Virus record (IMG/VR): IMGVR_UViG_2531839374_000011
Length of the DNA stretch: 24,188 nt
Source of the DNA: a virus
Lineage: Duplodnaviria > Heunggongvirae > Uroviricota > Caudoviricetes
Reading direction: 5' to 3' (one strand)
Under the pieces are notes generated by a model. It saw only the letters and a list, made by a program, of their open reading frames with translations. It searched no databases and had not been told where the DNA came from. Position numbers and translations under genes: made by a program. Positions 3,537 to 23,254 of this stretch are shown here, in pieces (position 1 is the stretch's first letter; the number at the start of each line of letters is the position of its first letter).

Positions 3537-3608
3537 TGAAGTGGCACACTGAATTTGGCCACCTGAACAGAGGTGATATGCTCACCTCAGAACAACACAG
3601 GTGCTCCA

Positions 3609-4777
<1,169 letters not shown>

Positions 4778-4785
4778 CCACTTCA

Positions 4786-5425
4786 CGCCAGAGTTTTATT
4801 TGAGATCGCAAACAGGGAGGTGGCTTATTACAACATAAGGCAGGAGTTTAATTACTCAACTGAAATTACTGATTTCATGAAAGCGGTATATTTCCTGTAT
4901 CTCAATCGTCACGGTTACCGTGGTTTATGTCGCTATAACAAGAGCGGGCATTTCAACATTCCCTACGGCAATTATAAAAATCCGTATTTCCCTGAAAAAG
5001 AAATTCGCGCATTTGCAGAAAAAGCCCAGCGAGCAACGTTTATCTGCGCCAGCTTTGATGAAACGCTGGCGATGTTGAAGGCGGGGGATGTGGTGTATTG
5101 CGATCCACCGTATGACGGTACGTTTTCCGGCTATCACACTGATGGTTTCACTGAAGATGACCAGTATCACCTAGCATCCGTTCTTGAACATCGGTCATCA
5201 GAAGGACATCCGGTCATTGTTTCTAACAGTGACACATCCCTGATCCGTTCGCTGTATCGCAATTTTACTCACCACTATATCAAGGTAAAACGCAGCATCG
5301 GTGTGGCAGCTGGCGAGGGTAAATCAGCAACAGAAATCATTGCTGTTTCCGGGCCGCGCTGCTGGGTGGGATTTGATTATTCGCGTGGCGTGGATAGTTC
5401 TGCCGTGTACGGAGTACGTGCATGA
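4786..5425 (+). pseudogene. dam: Dam-like N6-adenine DNA methyltransferase lacking its N-terminal about 90 residues (removed by IS911)
   Basis: ...[22 protein letters not shown]...VYCDPPY... aligns with E. coli Dam from about residue 95 (FRRAVLFLYLNRYGYNGLCRYN...VYCDPPY); the frame is open back to the IS911 end at 4785 and the SAM-binding motif I region is absent. Confidence 0.85.
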
Positions 5426-7835
5426 GCCATGCCGATATGAACAACTGCTGCGGCTTTAACGAGGCTGCCGCAGCGTTCTCATGGAACAGCCCGAAAAAGG
5501 CCATTAACCCTTATCTGGACCCGGCGGAAGTTGCGCCGGTTTCTGCGCTTTCAAACCTGATCACTCTGTACGCTGCCGATAACGAGCAGGAACAGTTGCG
5601 CCGCGAGGCACTGAGTGATCAGGTCTGGGAGCGTTATTTTTTTATGAATCACGTGATCCTGTCCAGCACGAAATGGAGCAGGATAAGCTCATTAGCCGGG
5701 CAAAGCTGGCGCATGAGCAGCAGCGTTTTAATCCGGATATGGTCATTCTGGCGGACGTCAACGCCCAGCCTTCCCATATCAGCAAGCCGCTGATGCAACG
5801 TATTGAATACTTCAGCAGCCTGGGCAGGCCAAAGGCTTATTCCCGCTATTTACGTGAGACGATTAAGCCATGTCTGGAACGACTGGAGCATGTACGCGAC
5901 AGCCAGCTATCTGCATCTTTTCGTTTTATGGCAAGCCATGTAGGGCTGGACGGCCTGCTGATTCTGCCTGAAATGAGTCAGGATCAGGTGAAACGCCTGT
6001 CTACCCTTGTCGCTGCGCATATGAGCATGTGCCTTGATGCAGCTTGTGGTGATTTGTATGCCACCGATGACGTTAAGCCAGAAGAAATCCGCAAGACATG
6101 GGAAAAGGTGGCAGCGGAAACCCTGCGTCTGGATGTCATCCCGCCTGCGTTTGAGCAACTCCGTCGGAAAAGAAACCGCCGTAAACCCGTGCCCTATGAA
6201 CTCATTCCGGGTTCGCTGGCGCGTATGTTGTGCGCCGACTGGTGGTACCGGAAATTATGGAAAATGCGTTGCGAATGGCGGGAAGAGCAGTTGCGTGCTG
6301 TCTGCCTGGTCAGCAAAAAAGCATCTCCCTATGTCAGCTATGAAGCCGTGATGCATAAACGTGAGCAGCGCCGCAAGTCATTGGAGTTTTTCCGTTCTCA
6401 TGAACTGGTGAACGAAGAGGGCGACACGCTGGATATGGAAGACGTGGTAAACGCCAGCAGCAGCAACCCGGCGCACCGCCGCAATGAGATGATGGCCTGT
6501 GTTAAAGGTCTGGAGCTTATCGCGGAAATGCGCGGTGACTGCGCCGTTTTCTACACCATTACCTGTCCGTCACGTTTCCATTCCACGCTCAATAACGGCA
6601 GACCAAACCCAACCTGGACAAATGCGACGGTAAGACAAAGCAGCGATTATCTGGTCGGCATGTTTGCTGCATTTCGTAAGGCGATGCACAAAGCCGGGTT
6701 GCGCTGGTATGGCGTGCGGGTGGCTGAGCCGCATCATGACGGTACAGTTCACTGGCACCTGTTGTGTTTTATGCGCAAAAAAGACCGCCGCGCCATTACT
6801 GCATTGTTGCGTAAGTTTGCCATCCGTGAAGACCGCGAGGAACTGGGTAATAACACTGGTCCACGCTTTAAATCTGAGCTGATAAACCCGCGCAAAGGAA
6901 CGCCGACAAGCTACATCGCGAAATACATCAGTAAGAACATTGACGGGCGTGGTCTGGCTGGCGAGATCAGCAAGGAAACGGGTAAATCCCTGCGTGATAA
7001 CGCTGAATACGTTAATCCCTGGGCGTCTCTGCATCGTGTTCAGCAATTCCGCTTCTTTGGTATTCCAGGGCGTCAGGCTTACCGTGAACTGCGGTTGTTG
7101 GCTGGTCAGGCGGCAAGGCAGCAGGGTGACAAAAAAGCAGGTGCGCCGGTACTGGATAACCCGCGCCTTGATGCCATCCTGGCTGCTGCTGATGCTGGCT
7201 GTTTTGCCACCTACATTATGAGGCAGGGCGGCGTGCTGGTTCCTCGCAAATATCACTTGATCAGAACCGCTTATGAAATCAATGAAGAGCCGACCGCCTA
7301 TGGCGATCACGGTATTCGTATTTATGGCATCTGGTCACCCATTGCAGAAGGCAAGATCTGCACTCATGCAGTGAAGTGGAAAATGGTTCGTAAAGCCGTT
7401 GACGTTCAGGAGGCGGCAGCCGACCAGGGCGCTTGCGCCCCTTGGACTCGTGGCAATAACTGTCTCCTTGCTGAAAATTTGAACCAACAGGAGAAAGATA
7501 AATCAGCTGATGGGAACCCCAGAACGGACATTACCAGCATGGATGACAAGGAGTTGCACGATTACCTGCACAGTATGAGCAAAAAAGAGCGCCGGGAACT
7601 GGCAGCAAGGTTACGCCTGGTGAAACCGAAACGGCGTAAAGACTACAAACAGCGAATTACAGACCATCAGCGACTGCAGCTCGTGTATGAGCTGAAGTCC
7701 AGAGGATTTGATGGCAGCGAGAAAGAGGTCGATTTACTCCTTCGCGGAGGCAGTATTCCGTCAGGAGCAGGCCTGCGTATCTTCTATCGGAACCAGCGTT
7801 TGCAGGAAGATGATCAGTGGCGGAACCTGTATTAA
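5422..7835 (+). pseudogene. Replication initiation protein (P2 gpA / 186 RepA rolling-circle endonuclease family) with a -1 frameshift in a T7 run
   Basis: Hallmark [13 protein letters not shown] and [11 protein letters not shown] motifs; N-terminal segment (track ORF 5422..5793) and main body (5673..7835) are in different frames, and both would be joined if the T7 run at 5637-5643 were T8 ([16 protein letters not shown]); start codon overlaps the dam stop (ATGA at 5422-5425). Confidence 0.85.
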
Positions 7836-7927
7836 TTACGCGGGTTAACAATTCGTGCTCTTAATAATACCAGGCATATCAGGCTGATGAACGTAAAAAA
7901 ACGTTTTACATCAGTAAGATTATTATA

Positions 7928-7947
7928 TACTGTAAATATAAACAGTG
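7928..7947. promoter_or_regulatory. LexA (SOS) box taCTGTaaatataaACAGtg
   Basis: Perfect CTGT-N8-ACAG with AT-rich spacer (CTGT 7930-7933, ACAG 7942-7945), about 45 bp upstream of the tum-like start. Confidence 0.7.
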
Positions 7948-7988
7948 GTTATGCATACAGTATTGCGTGTGGTGTCATAGGAGGAAAG

Positions 7989-8177
7989 ATGCAGGACTAT
8001 TTTTTGGAGTCTTTGAAGCTCCAGCGCATTGATTTTTTTCTTAAGCTTGTAGCGGCTAGTGAGTGTAGTGATGAAGAGAAGGGGCTGGCTCTGCAGTGGG
8101 TTTCTGAATTGACTGATGAACTCATGGCAAAAATCAGAACCCACGAATACAACCGCTCAATGGATGTCATCAGCTGA
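7989..8177 (+). CDS. SOS-regulated small protein, candidate Tum-like antirepressor (62 aa)
   Basis: ATG at 7989 with AGGAGG RBS directly downstream of the LexA box; position equivalent to 186 tum at the right end of the early region; function inferred from context only. Confidence 0.45.
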   Translation: MQDYFLESLKLQRIDFFLKLVAASECSDEEKGLALQWVSELTDELMAKIRTHEYNRSMDVIS

Positions 8178-8713: not shown

Positions 8714-10264
8714 ATGTTAGTCAAGAAAAATAAAAATTATAGTTTATATTTTTTAATTACAAATAATCAACAGATATCTGATTCTGGTAATTATATAAAA
8801 ATAGTCCCATCAAGAAGCGATTGGAATGATTTTGGATATTTGAGTAGAGTCGAAATATCTATTTTTAATAAAAAAGAGTGTAAGGATATAATTTCACTGA
8901 ATGGTTATATTGGTTTTTTGAATTCAGAGGAGGAACGAAATGGAAAAGCAGAACTGATAAGGCGAGTGAAGAAAAAGGAAGAATCTAATTTAAAGGATGA
9001 GGGGTTTAATGATTATTTTGTCATGCTTCAGGATATGAATAATTATCGAAGACTAGTAAGATTTTTTGGGGTGAATGAATCCAAATATATATTAAATTTC
9101 ATTAATGATGTTGTTTCTAAGAAAAGTGACGCTAGTGCAGAGAATTTGAGGAAAAAAGCAATCTCTTCTGATATCTTTAATAAATCTTTCATTAGAGAGT
9201 CTGAGTCGTATTTTACTTTCAAAAATGCAGGAACAGTTCTTTCCGGTATTCAATATGAGGAGTTGGGTAATTTATCACAGCACATCAAGATTAGCTATTC
9301 GAATAAAGTTAATGAAGAAGATGTATCTTATGTTTTTAATTTTGATCACGAGCATGATTTACCAAAAAGAATTTCCATAATTATAGGCGAGAATGGTGTA
9401 GGAAAAAGCCAAACGCTTAGAGAAATCGCATTGGCTGCGATTAAAGGAAAGGATAATTTGGTGGCTGTAGTTGATTCTAACGGTGTGAGCATTGAAGAAC
9501 GAATTCAAATTAGTAGGCTCATTGCTTTTTCTCCAACAAATGAAAGTAAGTGTTCATTTCCAACCGATAAAAGAATAAAATCATTGATATGGTACAAAAG
9601 ATTGACTTTAAATCGTGAATCAAAATCCAAATTAAACTTGAATGATTTAATAGTGCAACTAGCGAGGAGTAACGACGCTATCGGCTATAATCAAAGGTGG
9701 AATATATTTGTTGATGCACTGAGTGTTCTAAATAGTAACAACGATTTAGTAATCAAATGTGGCGGTGAAAATTCACCATTTGTTAAATTAAATGAGCTTA
9801 ATTCTCGAGGCGAAGAATCTAGACTATCATTATATTCTGAAATTATTCTCTCTGGCGAGCCTTTGAGGCTTATTGAAAATAAATGTTACCCTTTGAGTAG
9901 TGGGGAAATATCGTTTATTAAGTTTTGTGTACAAGTCTGTTTGTATATTGAGAATGGGACTCTTCTATTAATAGATGAGCCAGAAACACATCTCCATCCT
10001 TCATTTATTAATAAATTTATGGCATTGCTTGATAATTTATTAGAAAAGACAGGCTCTTCAGCTATCATAGCAACGCATTCGGTTTATCTTGTTCGGGAGG
10101 TTTTTAAGGAGCAAGTGACAATACTCAGAAGACGAGATGATGGGGTAATTGTTAGCGAAAAACCGAGATTGAGTACTTTTGGGGCGAATATAGGAAATAT
10201 CTCATATTTTGTTTTCGGTGAGAGTGAACCAACTCAAATTTTAAATAAAGTAAAAACAATATAA
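8714..10264 (+). CDS. ABC-type P-loop ATPase (516 aa) with about 220-aa uncharacterised N-terminal domain; candidate defence-system ATPase
   Basis: Walker A GENGVGKSQT (near residue 225), signature-like LSSGE, Walker B LLLIDEPETHLHP, H-loop ATHSVYL; strongly AT-rich coding sequence unlike flanking phage genes; GAGAGGG RBS. Confidence 0.75.
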   Translation: MLVKKNKNYSLYFLITNNQQISDSGNYIKIVPSRSDWNDFGYLSRVEISIFNKKECKDIISLNGYIGFLNSEEERNGKAELIRRVKKKEESNLKDEGFNDYFVMLQDMNNYRRLVRFFGVNESKYILNFINDVVSKKSDASAENLRKKAISSDIFNKSFIRESESYFTFKNAGTVLSGIQYEELGNLSQHIKISYSNKVNEEDVSYVFNFDHEHDLPKRISIIIGENGVGKSQTLREIALAAIKGKDNLVAVVDSNGVSIEERIQISRLIAFSPTNESKCSFPTDKRIKSLIWYKRLTLNRESKSKLNLNDLIVQLARSNDAIGYNQRWNIFVDALSVLNSNNDLVIKCGGENSPFVKLNELNSRGEESRLSLYSEIILSGEPLRLIENKCYPLSSGEISFIKFCVQVCLYIENGTLLLIDEPETHLHPSFINKFMALLDNLLEKTGSSAIIATHSVYLVREVFKEQVTILRRRDDGVIVSEKPRLSTFGANIGNISYFVFGESEPTQILNKVKTI

Positions 10265-10345
10265 TTGCAAAGAATATGTCTTGGGATGATGTTGAATCTA
10301 AATATAGCGAGGACTTATCACTTAATGTATTAACTGCGTTGAGAA

Positions 10346-11227
10346 ATGAAATGGGCAATTGAAATGAATAAATTAAAAAGACCTGTTTTTAAAGATTATT
10401 CTGCATTTAAAAAACTATCTGCAAATAAGAGATTAAAACATCATTCTGTTCTGAATGGACAGGATACATTTATACTTAATGCATATAGATCGTACATAAA
10501 GAATAAAGGGTATCTTAATGTCAATTCTTGTGGCGTATTGAGTAACAATATTGCTGAAGCTTTGAGATATTATTATAACAATCCCGCAAAGTGTTTATCT
10601 ATAATTGATGATATAAGAGCAGCTAATTCTAACTCTCTATGTCCAATGTGTGGTTCAATGCATAGCGGGACTTTGGATCATGTTTTACCCAAGGAAAACT
10701 ATCCAGAATTTTCTTTATTCACTAAGAATTTGGTTCCTGCTTGCAAATGTAATACTTTCAAAAGTACTACTATAGCTAATTCTGCAGGCCATCGGATGCT
10801 GCATCCATATTTTGATAATATATTAAAACAAAGATTAATATGTGCTAATTTTTCTAAATTAGGGCGAACACCTACAATTGATGTAAAAATCATAATTGAC
10901 CCAATGTCACCAGAATATAACAATGTTAAGTATCATCTTGATAATGTTGTTATCAAGAATAATATTAAGGGGTATTTGTCTGAACAATGGGAGTCGTTTT
11001 ACTTATATCCTGAGCTTGTTATTAGAGGACTGAATAAGAGTCTTTCTACTTATAGCGATGTATATGAGTTGTTGACTCGCGAGTTGTTGCTGTTGGATGA
11101 AAAACATAAAGGTAAAAATAATTGGAATTCGGTTTTTGTAGCTGGGTTAATTCGACCTGATGTGATTAGGTGGATACTCTGTGAATTACATTTAGGTAAC
11201 AGAAGTCCAGACGGTCGTCTCATATGA
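10346..11227 (+). CDS. HNH-motif nuclease (293 aa from ATG 10346; alternative start at 10364); candidate defence effector
   Basis: CPMCGSMHSGTLDHVLPKENYPEFSLFTKNLVPACKCN = CxxC...DH...N...CxC pattern typical of Zn-bound HNH/His-Me finger nucleases; same AT-rich composition and orientation as the upstream ATPase. Confidence 0.7.
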   Translation: MKWAIEMNKLKRPVFKDYSAFKKLSANKRLKHHSVLNGQDTFILNAYRSYIKNKGYLNVNSCGVLSNNIAEALRYYYNNPAKCLSIIDDIRAANSNSLCPMCGSMHSGTLDHVLPKENYPEFSLFTKNLVPACKCNTFKSTTIANSAGHRMLHPYFDNILKQRLICANFSKLGRTPTIDVKIIIDPMSPEYNNVKYHLDNVVIKNNIKGYLSEQWESFYLYPELVIRGLNKSLSTYSDVYELLTRELLLLDEKHKGKNNWNSVFVAGLIRPDVIRWILCELHLGNRSPDGRLI

Positions 11228-19114: not shown

Positions 19115-19247
19115 CGGTGATCTGAATGCGTTGCTGGATGAAACGGAGGCCGCCTGGGCGGTCTGTGCAGACAAAGTGGACATGATTATTGCGTGTCAGG
19201 AGCGAAACAGTGAACAAACCACAATCCCTGCGCCACGCCCTCAATAA
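18957..19247 (+). CDS. LysC / Rz1-like outer-membrane lipoprotein spanin, embedded in and extending beyond lysB
   Basis: Signal peptide with lipobox LTLSGC, Pro-rich mature part, overlapping frame within the Rz-like gene. Confidence 0.65.
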   Translation: MRTRIYVAGLILLCLLTLSGCGNVRHSPEVQLTVSGCPRVTPCRLEQAAPRTNGDLNALLDETEAAWAVCADKVDMIIACQERNSEQTTIPAPRPQ

Positions 19248-19641
19248 AGCAGTGCCTTATGTCCGTAATAACCCGGACAAACTGCATCTGTTTGTGGATA
19301 ACGGTTCGCTGGTTGCCTCCGGGGCTAGCTCCATGTCATGGGAGTACCGCTACACCCTGAACGTGGTGATTGAAGATTTCAGCGGCGACCAGAATCTGCT
19401 GATGGCCCCGGTTTTGCTGTGGCTGCGGGATAACCAGCCCGATGCGATCAATAACCCGGCGTTACGGGAAAAGCTATTCACCTTTGAGGTGGATATTCTG
19501 CGCAACGATGTCTGTGATATCAGCCTTAACCTGCAACTGACGGAGCGTGTGCTGGTCAGCACTGACGGCAGTGTGTCGAACGTTGAAGCGGTAGCGGAAC
19601 CTGATGAACCTGAAGAAATGTGGACGGTGAAACGTGGCTGA
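19210..19641 (+). CDS. Tail completion protein (P2 gpR family)
   Basis: GTG at 19210 with AGGAG RBS 7 nt upstream; the track ORF begins at 19189 with TTG. Confidence 0.7.
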   Translation: MNKPQSLRHALNKAVPYVRNNPDKLHLFVDNGSLVASGASSMSWEYRYTLNVVIEDFSGDQNLLMAPVLLWLRDNQPDAINNPALREKLFTFEVDILRNDVCDISLNLQLTERVLVSTDGSVSNVEAVAEPDEPEEMWTVKRG

Positions 19642-20077
19642 ATTGCAGAAGGTGGACGACTGGCTGAGTGCATTATTGGCGAATCTGGAGCCAGCCGCAA
19701 GAAGCCGCATGATGCGCCAGCTGGCGCAGGAACTGCGCCGGACACAGCAGCAGAACATCAGGATGCAGCGCAATCCTGATGGCAGCAGTTATGAGCCGCG
19801 CAGGGTAACAGCACGCAGCAAAAAGGGGTGCATCAAACGTCAGATGTTTACAAAGCTGCGCACCACAAAATACCTGAAAACTGCAGCCAGCGCCGATTCT
19901 GCCAGCGTACAGTTTGAAGGTAGGGTGCAGCGCATTGCCCGTATTCACCATTACGGCTTGAGTGATCGCGTCAGTCGAAAAGGTATTTATACCATCTATG
20001 CGAAAAGGCAGTTATTAGGTTTTAATGTCCAATCTATTGAGTTAATTGAAAGAATGTTCATTAAAAACCTAACTTGA
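19634..20077 (+). pseudogene. Tail completion protein (P2 gpS family) with replaced/AT-rich 3' end adjacent to IS1
   Basis: GTG start overlapping the gpR stop; composition changes abruptly to AT-rich at about 19990 and the downstream tail genes are missing. Confidence 0.55.
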
Positions 20078-20155
20078 TTTTTATTTGTTTTCAATTGAGT
20101 GGTAATGCTGCCAACTTACTGATTTAGTGTATGATGGTGATTTTAAGGTGCTTGC

Positions 20156-20431
20156 GTGGCTTCCATTTCCATCAGATGTCCTTCCTGCTCCGCTACTGAA
20201 GGCGTGGTGCGTAACGGCAAAAGCACTGCCGGACATCAGCGCTATCTCTGCTCTCATTGCCGTAAAACATGGCAACTACAGTTCACTTACACCGCCTCTC
20301 AGCCCGGTACGCACCAGAAAATCATTGATATGGCCATGAATGGCGTCGGATGTCGCGCCAGTGCACGCATTATGGGCGTTGGCCTCAACACGGTTTTACG
20401 TCACTTAAAAAACTCAGGCCGCAGTCGGTAA
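20156..20431 (+). CDS. insA: IS1 InsA (91 aa)
   Basis: [43 protein letters not shown]... ending ...[14 protein letters not shown]. Confidence 0.95.
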
Positions 20432-20853
20432 CCTCGCGCATACAACCGGGCAGTGATGTGATTGTCTGCGCTGAAATGGACGAACAGTGGGGCTACGTCG
20501 GTGCTAAATCACGTCAGCGCTGGCTGTTTTACGCGTATGACAGGATACGGAGGACGGTTGTGGCGCACGTCTTCGGTGAACGCACTCTGGCCACACTGGA
20601 GCGTCTTCTGAGCCTGCTGTCGGCCTTTGAGGTCGTGGTATGGATGACGGATGGCTGGCCGCTGTATGAATCACGCCTGAAGGGAAAGCTGCACGTTATC
20701 AGCAAGCGTTACACTCAGCGCATTGAGCGACATAATCTGAATCTGAGACAACATCTGGCAAGGCTGGGACGGAAGTCACTGTCGTTCTCAAAATCGGTGG
20801 AGCTGCATGACAAGGTCATCGGGCATTATCTGAACATAAAACACTATCAGTAA
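20350..20853 (+). CDS. insB: IS1 InsB frame (expressed as InsAB' by -1 frameshift at the A6C run 20407-20413)
   Basis: -1 frame overlapping insA; TTAAAAAAC slippery run present. Confidence 0.9.
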
Positions 20854-20868
20854 GTTGGAGTCATTACC

Positions 20869-21024
20869 TACACAGAAATGCCTGTGAAGGTCAGTGGCTT
20901 TAAACAGCCGCTAGATGATGCGGAATGGACCATTACGACTCTGACGCATACTGTCAGCCCGGATAACGGTTTTACGACCAGTCTGGAGCTTGAAGTGAGG
21001 ATTGATGATTTCGAAATGGAATGA
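20869..21024 (+). pseudogene. C-terminal fragment (about 50 codons) of tail protein D (P2 gpD family), abutting IS1
   Basis: Open frame from the IS1 end ...EMPVKVSGFKQPLDDAEWTITTLTHTVSPDNGFTTSLELEVRIDDFEME* with no start codon; sits just upstream of ogr as gpD does in P2. Confidence 0.55.
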
Positions 21025-21114: not shown

Positions 21115-21333
21115 ATGATGATTTGCCCACTGTGTGGAAGTGCCGCCCATACTCGCAGCAGTTTTCAGGTATCTTCATTGACCAAAGAGCGTTACAACCA
21201 GTGCCAGAACATTAACTGCAGCCATACTTTTGTTACCCATGAAACTTTTGTTCGTTCGATTGCAACGCCAAAAGAGTCAAATCCGGTTCAGCCGCATCCA
21301 ATGAAATCAGGACAGGTGGCGCTCTCTCTTTGA
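21115..21333 (+). CDS. ogr: Ogr/Delta-family zinc-finger late-gene transcriptional activator (72 aa)
   Basis: MMICPLCGSAAHTRSS...KERYNQCQNINCSHTF... = CxxC...CxxxxC Zn-finger matching the recalled P2 Ogr (CPLCQHAAH...KERYHQCQNVNCSATF). Confidence 0.85.
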   Translation: MMICPLCGSAAHTRSSFQVSSLTKERYNQCQNINCSHTFVTHETFVRSIATPKESNPVQPHPMKSGQVALSL

Positions 21334-21568: not shown

Positions 21569-23254
21569 TTATCCTAATCCTGGCCATACCATGACGATGA
21601 TTGTCCCTGCCAGCGTCAGCAGGACGTTGGCGATTGCGTAGGTGCCCGCATAGCCCAGCGCAGGGATGTTACTGCGAGCTGTATCACTGATGATCTCCAT
21701 TGCCGGCGCGCAGGTGCGTGCGCCCATCATTGCGCCGAACAACAGTGCGCGGTTCATTCGCAATACATAAGCACCGAACAAGAAACAGATAACCACGGGC
21801 ACAAGACTGACAATTAATCCGGCAATCAACATCTGACCGCCAATCGCGCCCAGGCCGTTATTAATACCGCTACCGGCGCTCAGACCAACGCCTGCCATAA
21901 ACACCATCAAGCCGAACTCTTTCACCATGCTTAATGCACCTTGCGGAATGTAACCGAAGGTCGGGTGGTTAGCACGCATAAAGCCCAGCATAATTCCGGC
22001 GAATAACAACCCGGCAGCGTTCCCCATGCCGAAACTGAATGTGCTGAACTGGAAGGTGATCATCCCGATCATCAGCCCAATAACAAAGAAGGCGCAAAAT
22101 GCCAGCAGGTCAGTGACCTGGCTGTGAATCGAGATAAAGCCGATGCGATCGGCGATGGTTTTTACGCGACGGGCATCACCGCTGACTTGTAAAACGTCAC
22201 CTTTGTTAAGCACGACGTTGTCATCTATCGGCATCTCAATCTGGCTACGAATGACGCGGTTAAGGAAGCAACCGTGATCGGTCAACTTCAGTTGTGCGAG
22301 ACGTTTACCTACAGCGTTATGGTTTTTAACGACCACTTCTTCAGTGACGATACGCATGTCGAGAAGGTCACGATCGAAAACTTCTTTACCGTTACGGAAG
22401 CTGGGATCGAGTCGGGCATGGGCGTCGGGATAGCCTACCAACGCTATTTCATCGCCCATTTGTAGCACGGCATCACCGTCTGGATTTGCCAGAATCCCGT
22501 TACGTCGAATACGTTCAATGTAGCAGCCGGTTTGTCGATAAATACCCAGTTCACGCAGATTTTTGCCGTCGGTCCAGGCCACCAGCTCCGGGCCGACGCG
22601 ATAGGCGCGGATCACCGGTAAATAAACCTTACGGTTGGCATCAGTGTCCAGGCCACGTTCGCGGGCGATTTGCTGGGCGCTGGTCTGTAAGTCCTGATGC
22701 TGCAATTTCGGCAAGTAACGCGCACCAACAATCAAACTCACCAGACCGATTAAATAGGTTAAGGCATACCCGAGGCTCAGATTATCCAGTGCCAGTGAGA
22801 GCTGCCTGCTTTCCATGCCGGAATGACGCAGTGTATCGCCAGCACCGACCAGAACCGGTGTCGACGTCATAGAGCCTGCTAACATACCGGCCGTCAGGCC
22901 AATATCCCAGCCAAACAGCTTACCTAACCCTAAGGCGATCACCAGCGCACTGCCAACCATCACCAGTGCTAACATTAGGTAATTTTTCCCATCGCGAAAA
23001 AAAATGGAAAAAAAGTTCGGTCCGGCTTCGACCCCGACGCAGAAAATAAACAGCATAAAGCCAAGATTAAGCGCATCGGTGTTAATGCTGAAATGTTGTT
23101 GGCCTAATAACAGCGATACGACTAAAACGCCAATGGAATTACCCAGTTGGATCGAACCAAGTCGTAACTTTCCGAGACATAGCCCAAGCGCGAGGACCAC
23201 AAATAATAACAGAATGTAATTCCCATTTAACAATTCGGCGACGTTTATATTCAC
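21569..23254 (-). CDS. ybjL: Putative transporter YbjL (AAE-family membrane protein with TrkA-C domains)
   Basis: 561 aa starting [33 protein letters not shown]..., recognised as E. coli YbjL. Confidence 0.85.

Follow-up and report, generated by a model that had tools for sequence, protein, structure and literature searches.

Loss of the tail genes beside an IS1 copy in a defective P2/186-like prophage at the rcdA-ybjL locus

In the stretch of prophage DNA analysed here (24,188 nucleotides, hereafter the window), the tail completion gene S is followed by a copy of IS1 and, immediately beyond it, by the 3′ end of gene D. How did an insertion sequence come to stand between S and D, and what was lost when it did so? 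The first-pass annotation had proposed that an IS1-mediated adjacent deletion removed the tail gene block and left the prophage tail-less. The features on which the answer depends are listed below.

1-375 and 3537-4786: two IS911 copies, inverted with respect to each other (99.8% identity to annotated IS911)
1426-2194 (1417-2203 with its duplication), minus strand: IS1 copy 1, 769 bp, a simple insertion
19210-19641, plus strand: gpR, tail completion protein, intact (Pfam P2_Phage_GpR; full match by tblastn)
19634-20077, plus strand: gpS, tail completion and virion morphogenesis, full length at 147 aa (Pfam, tblastn)
20081-20100, minus strand: remnant of a DUF5677 cargo gene, its last 20 nt including the stop codon (comparison with the intact locus L002)
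20101-20868, plus strand: IS1 copy 2, 768 bp, without target-site duplication, marking the deletion
20869-21024, plus strand: 3′ fragment of gpD, residues 316-366 and stop, in frame (tblastn, 50/51)
21115-21333, plus strand: ogr, late-gene activator, intact, 72 aa, the rightmost gene of the prophage, next to its right attachment region
21569-23254, minus strand: ybjL, aspartate:alanine antiporter family, the chromosomal right flank

The prophage is P2/186-like (Peduoviridae). It follows the order int-cI / apl-cII ... A ... Q-P / O-N-M-L-X-Y-K-lysA-lysB-R-S ... D-ogr, matches the Pfam families Int_N, Phage_CI_repr, Phage_GPA, Phage_portal, P2_Phage_GpR and Phage_tail_S, and is 95% identical to Escherichia phage 500465-1 (Peduoviridae). 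The contractile-tail module (V W J I H G FI FII E E′ T U D) is not complete. The remnant keeps the regulatory, replication, head and lysis genes together with R, S and ogr, R and S being the last tail-related genes left before the deletion; it is without baseplate, fibre, sheath, tube and tape-measure genes, without U and without a functional D.

IS1 copy 2 has the size and the architecture of the IS1 family. Its terminal inverted repeats are 23 nt long and imperfect, with arms 87% complementary, and it carries insA (20156-20431, 91 aa) and insB (20350-20853, 167 aa), which overlap around an A6C frameshift motif, TTAAAAAAC, at 20405; a simulated -1 shift at this motif yields the 232-aa InsAB′. 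The element is 100% identical to copies annotated as ‘IS1 family transposase’ in complete E. coli genomes, and Pfam Zn_ribbon_InsA, HTH_Tnp_IS1 and DDE_Tnp_IS1 match the same element in relatives. No target duplication is found at its ends, the 9 bp on the left being caattgagt and the 9 bp on the right tacacagaa, as the first-pass annotation had noticed. The missing 9-bp duplication is thus the signature of a later rearrangement and no argument against the identity of the element as IS1.

IS1 copy 1 sits between int and a 63-aa ORF. The same 9 bp, aagcaaaag, stand on either side of it (1417-1425 and 2195-2203), a perfect duplication, and this copy serves as an internal control for an undisturbed IS1 insertion in the same window. 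A 6-nt inverted match past the IS ends had suggested that an inversion between the two IS1 copies might have swapped their target duplications. This reading was rejected, since only 4/6 bases match (aagcaa vs actcaa) and copy 1 has a perfect duplication of its own.

The extent of the loss could be sized against E. coli UPEC-245U (locus L002), which carries a complete P2/186-like prophage between rcdA and ybjL, that is, at the same site as the window, and so holds the intact tail region at this locus. After R, the order in this prophage is S (147 aa), a convergent DUF5677 gene, V, W, J, I, H, G, an alternative fibre cassette with an invertase, FI, FII, E, E′, T, U, D, ogr and ybjL. Wherever the two prophages have DNA in common, they are 99.8% identical. 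The two flanks of IS1 copy 2 are collinear and in the same orientation in L002, where they lie 13,864 bp apart; the missing segment of that length corresponds to L002 20602-34465, its right junction being ambiguous by one base. It comprises DUF5677, V, W, J, I, H, G, the invertible fibre cassette, FI, FII, E, E′, T, U and codons 1-315 of D. When the 15 proteins of this segment were compared with the whole window by tblastn, none gave a match except D, and D only through residues 316-366, while S (residues 1-147) and R and ogr in full all matched. The absence of the baseplate, fibre, sheath, tube and tape-measure genes, claimed at first reading, thus holds across the whole window.

The prophage also proved to end where it appears to end. 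The source contig, AMGB01000027.1 (L020; GCA_000296305.1), which was traced by an exact search with the 516-aa ATPase of the window, shows no differences from the window over 20,264 common bases and continues on the left with the rest of IS911, the last 59 codons of int and then rcdA, so that the prophage is bounded by int′/rcdA on the left and ogr/ybjL on the right. No tail genes adjoin the prophage on either side in this contig, and the suspicion that they might lie elsewhere, contiguous with it, was thereby answered.

At the right end of IS1 copy 2, the first-pass annotation had recognized an in-frame C-terminal fragment of gpD, and the match to gpD is clear: residues 316-366 are 50/51 identical (98%, E = 1e-28) to the product of a gene that the annotation of the intact relative calls ‘phage late control D family protein’. 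The right deletion breakpoint (20868/20869) corresponds to L002 34466, which is codon 316 of D.

The left side needs a different account from the one first given, in which an AT-rich patch replaced the end of gpS and the breakpoint would by implication lie in S. The flank is indeed AT-rich (27-36% G+C over about 19950-20100). However, gpS is complete at 147 aa, covers positions 2-147 of the 148 positions of the Pfam model Phage_tail_S, and differs by 3 residues from the S protein of UPEC-245U, whose gene has the same AT-rich 3′ end without any IS1. Set against the common S allele of other P2-like phages, its last ~31 residues (from 19984) are a divergent variant whose length is unchanged. Three pieces make up the patch: the variant S end just described (19984-20077), a spacer of 3 nt, and the 3′-terminal 20 nt of DUF5677 (20081-20100). 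The left breakpoint (20100/20101, L002 20601) lies 20 nt inside the 3′ end of DUF5677 and 23 nt past the S stop codon, hence in the cargo gene and not in S.

The patch is rare among E. coli prophages. In a megablast search of complete genomes with positions 19500-20130, similarity ended at 19983 in 1,053 of the 1,057 matching E. coli genomes, and likewise in phage records, while in the other 4 genomes the patch was matched right up to the IS1 boundary. We had considered that the patch might be foreign DNA brought by IS1, or junk in place of the end of S; both were rejected because it is identical base for base in four E. coli prophages without IS1. On sequence comparison, the patch is a mosaic boundary native to the phage lineage and linked with the DUF5677 cargo gene, and no scar of IS1. 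The switch to the variant S 3′ end falls exactly where the convergent gene for a 339-aa DUF5677 protein is inserted between S and V (L002 20485-21601), an arrangement present in 4 of 5,426 complete E. coli genomes; a search with PADLOC found no match for the DUF5677 protein.

Further evidence on the origin of the loss comes from relatives. An exact look-up of the window gpS returned five long loci (L003-L007), among them CP000036.1, which we take to be Shigella boydii Sb227. All five share the left junction, ttttcaattgagt abutting ggtaatgctgcc, with the window without any difference, and their IS1 differs from that of the window by 0 bases in four loci and by one substitution in L003; through S and IS1 the identity is 99.92-99.96%. 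The right end of their IS1 abuts the last ~100 nt of G (L002 26147), compared with D (L002 34466) in the window. Beyond this G′ they continue with the alternative fibre cassette, the invertase, FI, FII, E, E′, T, U, D (366 aa), ogr and ybjL. In L004, the segment missing relative to the intact prophage is L002 20602-26146 (5,545 bp). Compared with the five relatives, the window further lacks exactly 8,317 bp, counted from the outer end of the right repeat of IS1. Two deletion alleles therefore exist, with a common left endpoint marked by IS1 and different far endpoints, G′ and D′.

The allele of the window is rare in the records searched. The exact pattern of the right junction gave no match in the GTDB representative genomes, nor did that of the left junction in the GTDB representatives and the JGI metagenomes; among 5,426 complete E. 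coli genomes, BLAST recovered neither junction. A look-up of the 48-aa D′ ORF brought up no other genome with the window allele, so that the IS1/D′ allele is known from its own source contig alone. The corresponding look-up of ogr, with 71,578 blocks, was too broad to single out genomes. No relative was found with the ancestral simple insertion, that is, IS1 with its 9-bp duplication in an intact DUF5677. As a separate observation, ten relatives recovered through the truncated cII (L010-L019) carry an extra IS3-family element of ~1.26 kb between the start of int and IS1 copy 1 (at about 6780-8040 in the coordinates of these loci). The window is without it, so that the lineage of the source strain may have branched off earlier.

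In an IS-mediated adjacent deletion, one end of the element attacks another site of its own DNA molecule, and the stretch between the two is lost on a circle. The classical properties of such deletions are a retained IS, no target duplication, one invariant junction and variable endpoints on the other side. The present locus shows each of them: the IS is kept, it has no duplication, its flanks are collinear yet far apart in the intact reference, and one of its junctions is invariant while the other endpoint varies between alleles. The relatives with the same left junction and a shorter deletion strengthen this interpretation. We consider it the more probable explanation, though far from certain, that the 13,864 bp were lost by IS1-mediated adjacent deletion, either extending the G′ allele or arising independently from the same insertion. 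The proposal made at first reading is thus supported, on comparative evidence, by the collinear gap of 13,864 bp and by nested alleles that share the left junction.

The sequence of events would be as follows. IS1 would first have entered the AT-rich 3′ end of DUF5677 between S and V, in a prophage already resident between rcdA and ybjL; its position is observed, and this would be the primary insertion site because it is the junction common to the alleles. IS1 prefers AT-rich DNA for insertion, and the G+C content is 27% at the common left junction vs about 47-50% at the variable right endpoints, so that the common junction fits a primary insertion site. The right end of IS1 would then have been joined to sites further right in the same molecule, the DNA between being lost and IS1 kept; the resulting structure is seen directly, and intramolecular transposition is its presumed cause. 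The allele that ends in G, with 5,545 bp lost, occurs in the complete genomes examined, and that of the window ends at D codon 316, with 13,864 bp lost vs the intact prophage and 8,317 bp vs the short allele. The latter could have grown out of the short allele or have arisen separately from the same insertion. The loss probably proceeded in steps, or at least gave rise to nested alleles. Insertion sequences without target duplications are known to come from adjacent deletions or from recombination between IS copies (PMC11708052), and those deletions of the long-term evolution experiment that were anchored at an IS already in place were often small at first and then grew (PMC11708052).

The first alternative to be weighed is RecA-dependent recombination between two direct IS1 copies, which would call for a second IS1 at codon 316 of D and for one in G before that. 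It would give the same end product, namely a single IS1 without duplication, flanks from two separate sites and the same left junction, and it is a frequent cause of missing target duplications (PMC11708052). The setting is favorable as well: the genome is IS-rich, with two IS1 and two IS911 copies within 21 kb, the IS1 copies of the window differ by one base and would be good substrates for recombination, and recombination between IS911 copies of the same prophage is seen as an inversion in a relative (L015). Nevertheless, it needs extra events, as two more direct IS1 insertions and two crossovers would be required to account for both alleles. In the five relatives with the short allele, D is free of IS1 and intact with 366 aa (5/5), and no second IS1 lies among their tail genes; IS1 at the tacacagaa site in D occurs in 0 complete E. 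coli genomes. We therefore regard this recombination as a possible but rather unlikely origin of the loss.

An artefact of assembly is less probable still. Here, two real IS1 copies, one beside S and the other in D, would have been joined across in the draft and the segment between them omitted. The source is a whole-genome-shotgun contig (AMGB01000027.1), it has three homopolymer contractions that are absent from all relatives and typical of error-prone data of the pyrosequencing type, and the window allele is found in no other record. However, even such an artefact would need the junction between IS1 and D′ to be real, so that an IS1 end does abut D codon 316 in the source strain. Moreover, four IS copies are resolved in this contig, which in other respects runs collinear with complete genomes, and the baseplate and fibre genes are missing regardless, as they are in the complete genomes of the relatives. 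Such an error is accordingly improbable.

The least tenable alternative is a deletion unrelated to IS1 (e.g., by illegitimate recombination) followed by insertion of IS1 exactly at the scar: although losses from dam to U (L021) and from terminase to U (L025) occur without annotated IS at the junctions, a later insertion would leave a 9-bp duplication, which is not present, and the same left junction with a different right endpoint in relatives means that IS1 was in place before the loss specific to the window, so that the common junction and the missing duplication effectively exclude a deletion preceding the insertion, to which we give next to no credence. L021 and L025 are E. coli genomes in which this prophage family likewise occupies the ybjL site, with different internal deletions.

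Returning to the IS1-mediated adjacent deletion, its consequence for the phage should not be overstated. The statement that the deletion leaves the prophage tail-less is correct in that the tail genes are absent; on the other hand, the prophage was already defective beforehand. The gene int is split by a simple insertion of IS911 with a 3-bp duplication, CAA. The other IS911 lies in cII, lacks a duplication and adjoins a deletion of 1,835 bp (L002 3445-5279) running from cII into dam, which takes the 3′ end of cII, fil, DUF5347, DUF2732, traR and the 5′ end of dam and is common to the relatives. This makes two IS-anchored deletions in one prophage. The portal gene is disrupted, and it is split in several relatives as well. 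Since the progenitor was already without baseplate and fibre genes, with int, the cII-dam region and the portal gene disrupted, the IS1 deletion of the window is not the cause of the defectiveness. It adds a further step to the decay of a prophage that was already dead, in an IS-rich genome of the Shigella type.

Comparable systems place this locus among familiar cases. The classical IS1-mediated deletions of the gal region in E. coli K-12, reportedly described by Reif and Saedler in 1975, likewise start exactly at the end of a resident IS1, extend to a variable degree on one side, keep IS1 and leave no duplication. Unlike these, the present alleles are a natural series in prophages, known from comparative genomics and not selected in the laboratory, and a dependence on the transposase is presumed. 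The P2 remnant of E. coli K-12 has a C-terminal fragment of gpD beside ogrK at the attachment site; it resembles the window in being cryptic, with a 3′ fragment of D and ogr at the right end beside the attachment site. In contrast to the K-12 remnant, which is far more reduced and lies at a different site, the window keeps the left arm (cI, A, head, lysis, R, S), and IS1 marks its breakpoint. The IS150 deletions of the long-term evolution experiment (PMC11708052) are similar in that an IS came first and an adjacent deletion without duplication followed, often to be extended; there, however, the element belongs to the IS3 family and the order of events was observed, whereas here it is IS1 and the order is deduced. 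The window also resembles the IS-driven pseudogenization and rearrangement of Shigella genomes (e.g., PMC8072062): the host lineage is rich in IS, a number of IS1 and IS911 copies interrupt or remove genes at a single locus, and relatives show an inversion between IS copies. It does not differ from these in kind and is one concrete case.

IS-driven decay of prophages is a well-known phenomenon, of which the window is one ordinary instance. For annotation, the locus should be described as a defective P2/186-like prophage remnant with an IS1-anchored tail-module deletion of 13.9 kb, in which gpS is intact and D is a 3′ pseudogene fragment. The nested alleles of 5.5 kb and 13.9 kb on one IS1 end are a clean natural case of stepwise, IS-driven erosion of a prophage, and the pair could be used as a lineage marker. 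The importance of the finding goes little beyond annotation, and it opens no new question.

A few minor observations concern IS1 copy 1. It has an extra base at 1908, upstream of its A6C motif, which fuses insA and insB′ into a 232-aa ORF; the product equals the predicted InsAB′ except at residues 78-83, where NTVLRH is replaced by EHGFTS, and the extra base is absent from all relatives examined. Such a fusion would make no InsA repressor and would instead give a constitutive, InsAB′-like transposase. Residues 78-83 presumably fall in the recognition helix of the helix-turn-helix, as we take it from InsA, in which case the change of six residues may inactivate the fused protein. The extra base could be an activating mutation, an inactivating mutation, or an error of sequencing or assembly. 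That copy 1, with its fused insA-insB′, drove a second, strain-specific deletion step in trans is very improbable; if true, it would be a natural ‘up’ mutation of IS1 that speeds reductive decay.

The three homopolymer contractions mentioned above are specific to the source assembly, namely T8 to T7 at 5637 in gpA, A6 to A5 at 10252 in an ATPase gene, and C6 to C5 at 11469 in the portal gene; gpA is split into ORFs of 123 aa and 720 aa. They may be real slippage mutations or errors of the pyrosequencing type.

The locus has been rearranged in other relatives as well. In L015 (CP026811.1), the segment between the IS911 copies (int′ - IS - IS1 - cI - apl - cII′) is inverted with respect to its flanks, which is consistent with recombination between inverted IS911 copies. 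Two other relatives (L013, L014) have unrelated DNA to the left of IS911 or of an IS600-like element, pointing to further IS-mediated rearrangements at the locus.

Between the dinI-like gene and the portal gene (8714-11227), the prophage carries an AAA ATPase with a 293-aa partner. In PADLOC, the pair hits the candidate defence system PDC-M01 (A: E = 1e-54; B: E = 1e-33) and, less strongly, Septu PtuA. In the intact relative, the partner bears the annotation of an HNH endonuclease. The ATPase has 516 aa vs 549 because of the one-base contraction of the A-run at 10252.
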